Positions 1-632 of a stretch of DNA of 632 bases are shown piece after piece (position 1 is the stretch's first letter; each line of letters begins with the position of its first letter). The notes below the pieces were generated by a model. The model made no database searches. It was not told the DNA's origin and saw only the letters and a list, made by a program, of their open reading frames with translations. The stretch lies in assembly GCF_003334335.1 (NCBI RefSeq), contig NZ_QOWQ01000165.1; one strand, 5' to 3'. The position numbers and the translations under genes were made by a program. The stretch comes from Escherichia coli (GTDB lineage Bacteria > Pseudomonadota > Gammaproteobacteria > Enterobacterales > Enterobacteriaceae).

Positions 1-632
1 GAGATTGACAACAGTCAGCTGAAGGACGAGATGGCGGAAATGCAGACCACCATCACAGAAACCCGCAATGAAATCACGCAGACGGTCAGTAAAACGCTGG
101 AAGACCAGAGCGCCACCATACAGCAGATACAGCGCGTGCAGAAGGACACAAATGATGACCTTGCTGCACTTTACATGCTGAAGGTACAGAAAACAAAAAA
201 TGGCATACCCTATGTTGCCGGTATTGGAGCGGGGATTGAGGATACTGATGGCCAGCCCCTGAGCAACATACTGCTGCTGGCTGACCGTATTGCGATGATT
301 AACCCGGAGGACGGCAACACCACGCCGTTATTTGTGGCGCAGGGGAATCAGTTGTTCATGAACGATGTGTTCCTGAAGCGGCTGTTTGCGGTGAGTATCA
401 CCTCGTCCGGCAATCCCCCGACGTTTTCCCTGACGCCGGAGGGCAGGCTGACCGCAAGAAATGCTGATATCAGCGGTAACGTGAATGCGAATTCCGGGAC
501 GCTCAACAACGTCACGATTAACGAGAACTGTCGGGTTCTGGGAAAACTGTCCGCGAACCAGATTGAAGGCGATCTCGTTAAAACAGTGGGCAAAGCTTTC
601 CCCCGGGACTCCCGTGCACCGGAGCGGTGGCC
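1..632 (+). CDS. J: Phage tail tip attachment / host specificity protein J (central tail fibre), internal fragment, partial at both ends; reading frame 1 with first full codon at nt 1, last full codon ending at nt 630
   Basis: Seen in sequence: frame 1 is open for 210 codons with no stop; codon usage is G/C-rich at third positions as in enterobacteria. Recalled homology, not a database search: the translated segment VAGIG...[20 protein letters not shown]...[42 protein letters not shown] closely resembles the corresponding region of lambda gpJ (recalled as ...[59 protein letters not shown]...[43 protein letters not shown]...AAFPRQ), roughly the last third of a ~1100-aa protein. The only competing ORF is a short antisense one. 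Confidence 0.88.

Follow-up and report, generated by a model that had tools for sequence, protein, structure and literature searches.

The first 204 nucleotides of the window (the whole stretch of DNA that was analysed, 632 nt) most probably specify the alpha-helical shaft (AHS) of the tail-tip protein gpJ over its C-terminal two-thirds, together with the first beta-strand of the fibre prism that follows it; we put the probability of this reading at about 0.88. As judged by alignment, these nucleotides account for the shaft's final 56 residues and for the first prism strand, and analogy with lambda supports the interpretation of the segment as an amphipathic helix in the trimeric helical element of a central tail fibre of the lambda-J type. 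The identity of the gene, the position of the element within it, its composition and periodicity, its length classes and the recombination joints of the family were established directly.

Identity and genomic context of the gene

The window corresponds to residues 831-1040 of a 1156-residue gpJ from a lambdoid prophage of Escherichia coli and, judged by its sequence, the encoded protein is the tip attachment or host-specificity protein of that prophage. Frame 1 of the + strand is open from end to end, and its translation matches exactly the peptide described in an earlier note that was made from the sequence alone. The other frames and the minus strand contain only open reading frames of at most 81 aa, all of them within the well-supported J gene, and were dismissed as candidates. 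The window is 100% identical at the nucleotide level to part of annotated gpJ genes on several E. coli chromosomes, and phage PhiR5_1 and Stx2a-converting phages match it with 99.5% identity. Matches spanning at least 80% of the window were found in 1647 of 5426 complete E. coli genomes, i.e., roughly one third of them carry this J allele; 3,506 E. coli genomes had matches. In one chromosome with a 100% match (NZ_AP022811.1), J has 1156 codons and stands in the order L, K (a C40 peptidase), I, J, lom, a neighbourhood of the tail-tip type with L, K and I upstream and with lom and side-fibre genes downstream. On the 3' side of J and lom (L001, 6799-7950), the side tail fibre genes appear in the annotation as fragments (pseudogenes lacking N- and/or C-termini), and these are followed by a DUF4376 gene and a gene for a YadA-like adhesin.

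By BLASTP, the protein shares 66% identity with lambda gpJ, to which it is collinear over its full length (1156 versus 1132 residues, E = 0). Its Pfam domains are, in order, Ig_J_second (J 741-815), Phage_Tail_Tip (PF09327, J 870-997, which is window nt 118-501 and so begins at window aa 40) and Ig_GpJ_C (J 1026-1156). This succession of FNIII/Ig domains, tail-tip fibre and C-terminal receptor-binding Ig domain is that of lambda-type J proteins, and J 816-869 is the sole part between Ig_J_second and Phage_Tail_Tip that has no Pfam model. PDB chains of lambda J matched this J in HMMER searches with E values of 1e-102 to 1e-125; the solved chains 8xcj, 8iyk and 9wca gave strong matches on both flanks of the shaft and skipped about 26 residues in its middle, leaving approximately J 834-859 unaligned.

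For the C-terminal part of J (window nt 445-632 plus J 1009-1156), the PDB entries 9wca and 9wcb, named 'A8 gpJ 713', matched with E = 6.5e-125, as against 1.5e-103 for lambda J, and the motifs shared with 'A8 gpJ 713' include SISDLLVVVMKK.TAGI.IS. Because the receptor-binding domain has only 40% identity to its lambda counterpart, the receptor of this J may not be LamB.

Correspondence to the helical shaft of lambda gpJ

The AHS of lambda gpJ comprises residues 809-861, which form a three-helix bundle by cryo-EM and anchor the FNIII-2 units (PMC11101478); structures are available for the closed (PDB 8XCK) and open (PDB 8XCI) forms (Ge and Wang 2024, PMC11101478). Upon binding to LamB, the lambda AHS flips and its residues 841-861 turn into beta-strands atop the prism (PMC11101478).

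In BLASTP and in a MAFFT alignment of seven J proteins, lambda 809-861 aligned with J 806-886, lambda 841-861 with window aa 36-56, and lambda 862-873 with window aa 57-68. The shaft sits between the FNIII-2 domain and the beta-prism, and the anchors that bound it, GYL and YVAGIG, are conserved. The proposal of the earlier note that the segment could be the shaft of a trimeric fibre is thereby supported by collinearity with the three-helix AHS of lambda. The elements assigned to the window on this basis are as follows.

nt 1-12, + strand: end of the upper shaft helix and a short conserved '(I/V)D(N/A)' break (aa 1-4, J 831-834, EIDN), from the AlphaFold2 break at J 832-834
nt 13-168, + strand: main AHS helix, presumably in a parallel three-helix bundle (aa 5-56, J 835-886), from the mapping to lambda 836-861, the lack of Pro and Gly, the AlphaFold2 helix and a period of 3.55
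nt 7-99, + strand: zone containing 28 residues without lambda counterpart (aa 3-33, J 833-863), from BLASTP, MAFFT and HMMER, with a placement that depends on the alignment
nt 70-156, + strand: strong copy of a 29-residue repeat unit (aa 24-52), from scoring against a shuffle threshold
nt 106-168, + strand: counterpart of lambda 841-861, the converting part (aa 36-56, J 866-886), from the mapping and PMC11101478, its refolding being presumed from lambda
nt 169-204, + strand: probably the beta-prism (CSF), with its first strand and turn, rather than helix (aa 57-68; lambda 862-873), from mapping, residue spacing, motif and AlphaFold2 strands
nt 205-632, + strand: central straight fibre, a beta-prism, followed by the first part of the linker to the receptor-binding domain (aa 69-210), from 70% identity to lambda over aa 69-178 and PDB matches

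The ID(N/A) motif of the break recurs in close and distant homologues, and the motif L.A.[WY].[VIL]K[VIL]....G over aa 57-68 is conserved in distant homologues.

The two shafts belong to the same family, share their place between FNIII-2 and the beta-prism fibre, are amphipathic and poor in Pro and Gly, and lie between the same anchors (GYL..F upstream; ..W/Y.VK....G.. YVAGIG downstream). They differ in length, in sequence (10-24% identity in the part within the window) and in composition, the lambda AHS being rich in E, K and W and the shaft of the window in T, Q and I; moreover, the lambda structure has been solved, whereas the shaft of this allele is known from its sequence and from low-confidence models. 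The difference in length, 81 residues here (J 806-886) versus 53 in lambda, is due to 28 extra residues in the middle of the shaft, which appear as gaps of 21 and 7 residues in BLASTP against lambda J and, in the alignment of seven J proteins, as 28 columns where lambda has a gap, all within J 833-863. A search for an internal duplication behind the extra residues found no significant self-similarity within the coil of the window.

Identity to lambda J falls from 74% over J 1-805 to 44% over J 806-830, 10% over window aa 1-39, 24% over aa 40-56 and 33% over aa 57-68, and stands at 70% over aa 69-178. The earlier observation that about 110 residues downstream align well with lambda was therefore correct, and the shaft segment of this J is less like lambda (10-33%) than its downstream core is. 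The accompanying statement that the first 68 residues could not be convincingly aligned holds for the low identities just given but not for the segment as a whole, for residues 34-68 align to lambda 839-873 with 29% identity (E 1e-5); the remaining poor alignment is accounted for by the 28 extra residues at window aa 3-33.

Helical character of the shaft

The composition of the segment is as the earlier note described it. E, Q, K and T make up 44% of window residues 1-63, compared with 23% of the whole J protein, and the first Pro or Gly of the window peptide is G68. The Pro/Gly-free run extends over 77 residues (J 821-897) and is the longest in the protein, the runner-up having 36 residues; a run of this length was reached in 0.16% of 5000 shuffles (p = 0.0016). 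Hydrophobic residues recur in the window shaft at spacings of 3-4 residues, as had been noted, and up to aa 54 they do so at positions that are conserved in the class of 91-residue coils (window aa 7, 11, 14, 18, 25, 29, 33, 40, 43, 46 and 54, with core spacings of 4, 3, 4, 7, 4, 4, 7, 3, 3 and 8). Polar layers interrupt the core at about T21/T22, Q36 and T50.

Periodicity in the window sequence alone is weak: Fourier analysis with the period fixed beforehand at 3.5-3.6 gave p values of 0.025-0.05, and there was no significance once the scan over periods was corrected for (133 of 1000 to 139 of 500 shuffles). This marginal single-sequence test was replaced by analyses of the family average and of long relatives. 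Hydropathy averaged over ten 91-residue coils that are less than 90% identical to each other (J 835-886, with column shuffles as the null) has a peak at a period of 3.55 that was reached by 3 of 2000 column shuffles, and power at 3.5 is also strong. Among long-coil relatives, the closest ones show a hydrophobic period of 3.65 that is very strong (0 of 500 shuffles), with power at 3.5 of only 0.3-3.2; more distant long coils peak at 3.55. The period of the shaft family is thus more probably about 3.55-3.65 than a strict heptad period of 3.5. The helix proposed in the earlier note is accordingly retained as amphipathic, and the term 'heptad-based' is only an approximation, given that the long relatives at 3.65 have essentially no power at 3.5.

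From window aa 57 onwards, the spacing of conserved hydrophobic residues falls to 1-3 residues (aa 57, 59, 60, 62). Because of this drop, and because aa 57-68 align beyond the end of the lambda shaft (with lambda 862-873), the helix probably ends near aa 56 rather than at aa 63; the helical stretch originally drawn over residues 1-63 would thus be right to about aa 56, and residues 57-68 would be the counterpart of the first prism strand.

Structure prediction agrees with this arrangement at low confidence. A monomer model (AlphaFold2, J 781-1040, 30 homologues) had a mean pLDDT of 48, and was for that reason used for secondary structure alone. A linked pseudo-trimer of J 806-935 (three copies connected through GS linkers of 60 residues, eight homologues) gave three long helices, but with a mean pLDDT of 40 and a pTM of 0.33. 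At these low pLDDT values, helices were predicted at J 808-831 and at J 835-879 (monomer) or 835-892 (pseudo-trimer), with a break at J 832-834 in both models and with strands beginning at J 891/893. Such low-confidence models are no independent proof of a parallel trimer.

Length classes and the 29-residue repeat

The length of the shaft region was measured in clusters of homologues as the distance between two conserved anchors, GYL..F and Y[VI]AG[IL]G. Besides a few odd one-off lengths, the values fall into discrete classes:

63 residues between anchors: lambda type, 10 sequences
91 residues between anchors: window type and phi458 type, 57 sequences
164 residues between anchors: long type, 2 sequences

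Of the several discrete length classes among E. coli and Salmonella prophages, the commonest is the one that includes the allele of the window. A deeper search added a form of 262 residues (P0146) and distant J-like proteins that range from 53 to more than 1500 residues.

The coils of 164 and 262 residues are built of a 29-residue repeat, with self-similarity at lags of 29, 58 and 87. The repeat unit exceeds the 95% shuffle threshold at three places in P0125, in register and 29 residues apart, and at four places in P0146, and the coil of the window holds one strong copy (aa 24-52). These long-coil J proteins of E. coli prophages (P0014, P0076 and P0125, with 164 residues, and P0146, with 262) are the closest longer-shaft relatives of the window allele, with which they share the flanks and the terminal repeat unit (EIT.T...KL.DQ...IQQIQ.VQ.DT..). 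They differ from it in having three to at least four copies of the unit, compared with its one strong copy, and in their very strong period of 3.65.

Several irregular forms were also noted. At window nt 118-133, the heptamer ATACAGC is present twice, 9 nt apart, and encodes IQQIQ; cluster P0009 has an additional QIQ at this site and a 94-residue coil, as slippage on a short direct repeat would give. Two partial proteins (P0001 and P0126) contain tandem duplications of about 50-54 residues that reach from the coil end through YVAG into the first prism residues (equivalent to about nt 64-220), and have coil-to-anchor lengths of 145 and 141, respectively; these may be real duplications or assembly artefacts. 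In P0060, a deletion of 22 residues (equivalent to about nt 125-190) removes the end of the coil (…IQQ|MQDGRL…) and leaves 69 residues between the anchors, and this may be a defective prophage copy. P0241, P0238, P0259 and P0255 have very long J-like coils of 337 to more than 1500 residues in which a non-helical insert with the motif 'QNLWIDTT.NANTPKRW.G..W..V.D' recurs and which are interrupted by other domains rich in Pro and Gly as well.

Mosaic structure of the J genes

Five blocks of the gene were assigned to reference types in approximately 70 homologue clusters. The block upstream of the coil and the N-terminal half of the coil were of discordant types in many clusters. The two halves of the coil were discordant in P0007, of which the N-terminal half is phi458-type and the C-terminal half window-type, and in P0124, which begins as window-type and ends as phi458-type; PhiR49_2 aligns with the window (84%) only from nt 90. 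Discordance across FMNDVFLK was found in nine clusters. Recombination joints were assigned to two stretches of the window:

nt 67-141, + strand: joints within the coil, where NEITQTV (nt 67-87) and IQQIQRVQ (nt 118-141) form conserved patches, from P0007, P0124 and PhiR49_2
nt 355-384, + strand: joint at the conserved patch around FMNDVFLK, from the nucleotide identity of phi458 and Lambda_2E9, the nine discordant clusters and the starts of blastn alignments

The genes of phi458 and Lambda_2E9 are 92-100% identical to that of lambda up to about J codon 801-805 and 88-98% identical again from about window nt 346 (alignment column ~1345), and between these points they hold a different cassette of 440 nt. 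About 330 nt upstream of the window, Stx2d_112808 changes from window type to lambda type. The window gene diverges from 1720a-02 near window nt 440; in blastn, lambda J aligns to the window only from nt 286, and some other records likewise only from nt 280-286. Sequence comparison demonstrates junctions upstream of the window, within the coil (about nt 67-141), at nt 355-384 and close to nt 440.

A further patch of similarity was observed at window nt 469-560 (columns ~1471-1560), where Lambda_2E9 is 85-93% identical to the window gene at the nucleotide level, compared with 55-77% to the left and right of it; at columns 1441-1500, PhiR11_1_star reaches 92-93% identity. This resembles a separate small mosaic patch near the boundary between the prism and the receptor-binding domain.

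The earlier note had placed a mosaic junction at nt 190-205, in which case the coil would be an imported cassette with its 3' end at the coil/prism boundary, and the low similarity to lambda would be the footprint of that junction. The step in amino acid identity from 33% (aa 57-68) to 70% (aa 69-178) is indeed present, lambda-type J genes of Stx2c and Stx1a phages give blastn alignments that begin at nt 193, and the J genes of the window's group are clearly mosaic. Nor is the coil intrinsically fast-evolving, given that window and phi458 types are 62-80% identical at the nucleotide level in the coil and 48-72% in its flanks, which speaks for the lambda coil as an old allele in its own right. 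However, the alignments that start at nt 193 are only about 70% identical, the window gene has diverged from lambda throughout its whole 3' half (50-87% nucleotide identity), and nucleotide identity to lambda rises gradually over the boundary (38, 50, 58, 62, 55, 58, 73 and 87% in consecutive windows). Both the Pfam tail-tip model, which starts at aa 40, and the motif conserved in distant homologues begin before nt 190. In none of the ~70 clusters, a few of which have one block that is less than 75% identical to every type, were the last 30 coil residues assigned to one reference type and the 40 residues following YVAGIG to another, and the cassette exchanged between lambda and phi458 extends from about J codon 801-805 past this boundary to about window nt 346. 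A junction at nt 190-205 is therefore unlikely, and its proposal is only partly borne out: this is the place where similarity to the short-coil alleles becomes detectable and where the structural boundary from helix to prism lies, and not a demonstrated crossover. Coil end and prism top appear to be inherited together, as would suit the mechanism known from lambda, where the corresponding piece of the shaft refolds on top of the prism.

Proposed mechanism and alternatives

By analogy with lambda, the amphipathic helices of three J chains would pair into a parallel three-helix bundle, which would hang beneath the FNIII-2 domains, clamp them shut, and bear the beta-prism fibre and the receptor-binding domain. 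Binding of the receptor would twist the prism, whereupon the shaft would flip and its C-terminal part (aa 36-56) would refold to beta-strands on top of the prism; this refolding would free the FNIII domains, and the tip of the tail would open. For this allele, both the trimeric bundle and its triggered refolding are inferred from lambda. On the more speculative side, the whole-block differences in length, the 29-residue, 8-turn repeat and the 28 extra residues, which would enlarge the refolding part, could make the J shaft a modular spring of tunable length, an idea that we consider tentative and on balance doubtful. If it were true, the 28 extra residues, rich in T, I, V and Q, would alter the travel of the tail tip towards the membrane or the stored energy in comparison with lambda.

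A larger conformational change has been described in the central fibre of the F7 pyocin, where a switch of a coiled coil into a beta-prism was shown at the homologous position, and 21 of 24 phage fibres are predicted to undergo it too (He et al. 2026 preprint, PMC12874032). The F7 coil and its counterparts in siphophage fibres resemble the shaft of the window, which is presumed to be trimeric as well, in being a trimeric helical segment at the same place of a J-like fibre, followed by a beta-prism seed and varying widely in length among homologues (PMC12874032). It is conceivable that the whole coil of the window is such a large-scale fold-switching element: the lambda shaft undergoes a partial switch (PMC11101478), and the coil of the window is rich in T, I, V and Q, with a mean beta-propensity of ~1.0-1.1 as against 0.82-0.89 for the lambda shaft. 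Yet only 21 residues switch in lambda, the coil of the window is half as long as the F7 segment of 163 residues, and both AlphaFold2 runs gave helix, albeit at low confidence. The 11-residue pattern SxSxxMxxLxS of the F7 segment is absent: a regular-expression scan of the 91-residue coil in both orientations found 0 matches, 0.56 being expected by shuffling. A complete switch of the F7 kind is for these reasons unlikely here. It is far less probable still that the pattern of the shaft is a compositional accident, in a polar linker of low complexity without any defined helix. Such a reading could draw on the single-sequence periodicity that loses significance after correction and on the low AlphaFold2 confidence, but it is hard to reconcile with the improbability of the Pro/Gly-free run, with the family-level periodicity (p about 0.0015) at conserved hydrophobic positions, with length classes that are discrete and conserved, or with the homologous segment of lambda being a solved helix bundle (PMC11101478).

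Significance for the lambda-type J family

The element in the window is the known helical shaft of lambda-family gpJ in a common longer allele, real but ordinary, and as a discovery it carries little weight, the helical shaft of the lambda-family tail-tip protein having already been described. The 53-residue shaft of lambda is nevertheless a minority form among the sampled J clusters of E. coli and Salmonella, in which the 81-residue form is common. The minority status of the lambda length, the discrete length classes built of repeats, and the apparent joint inheritance of the shaft end and the prism top could guide the design of J chimeras, in which J is swapped to retarget phages or tailocins.
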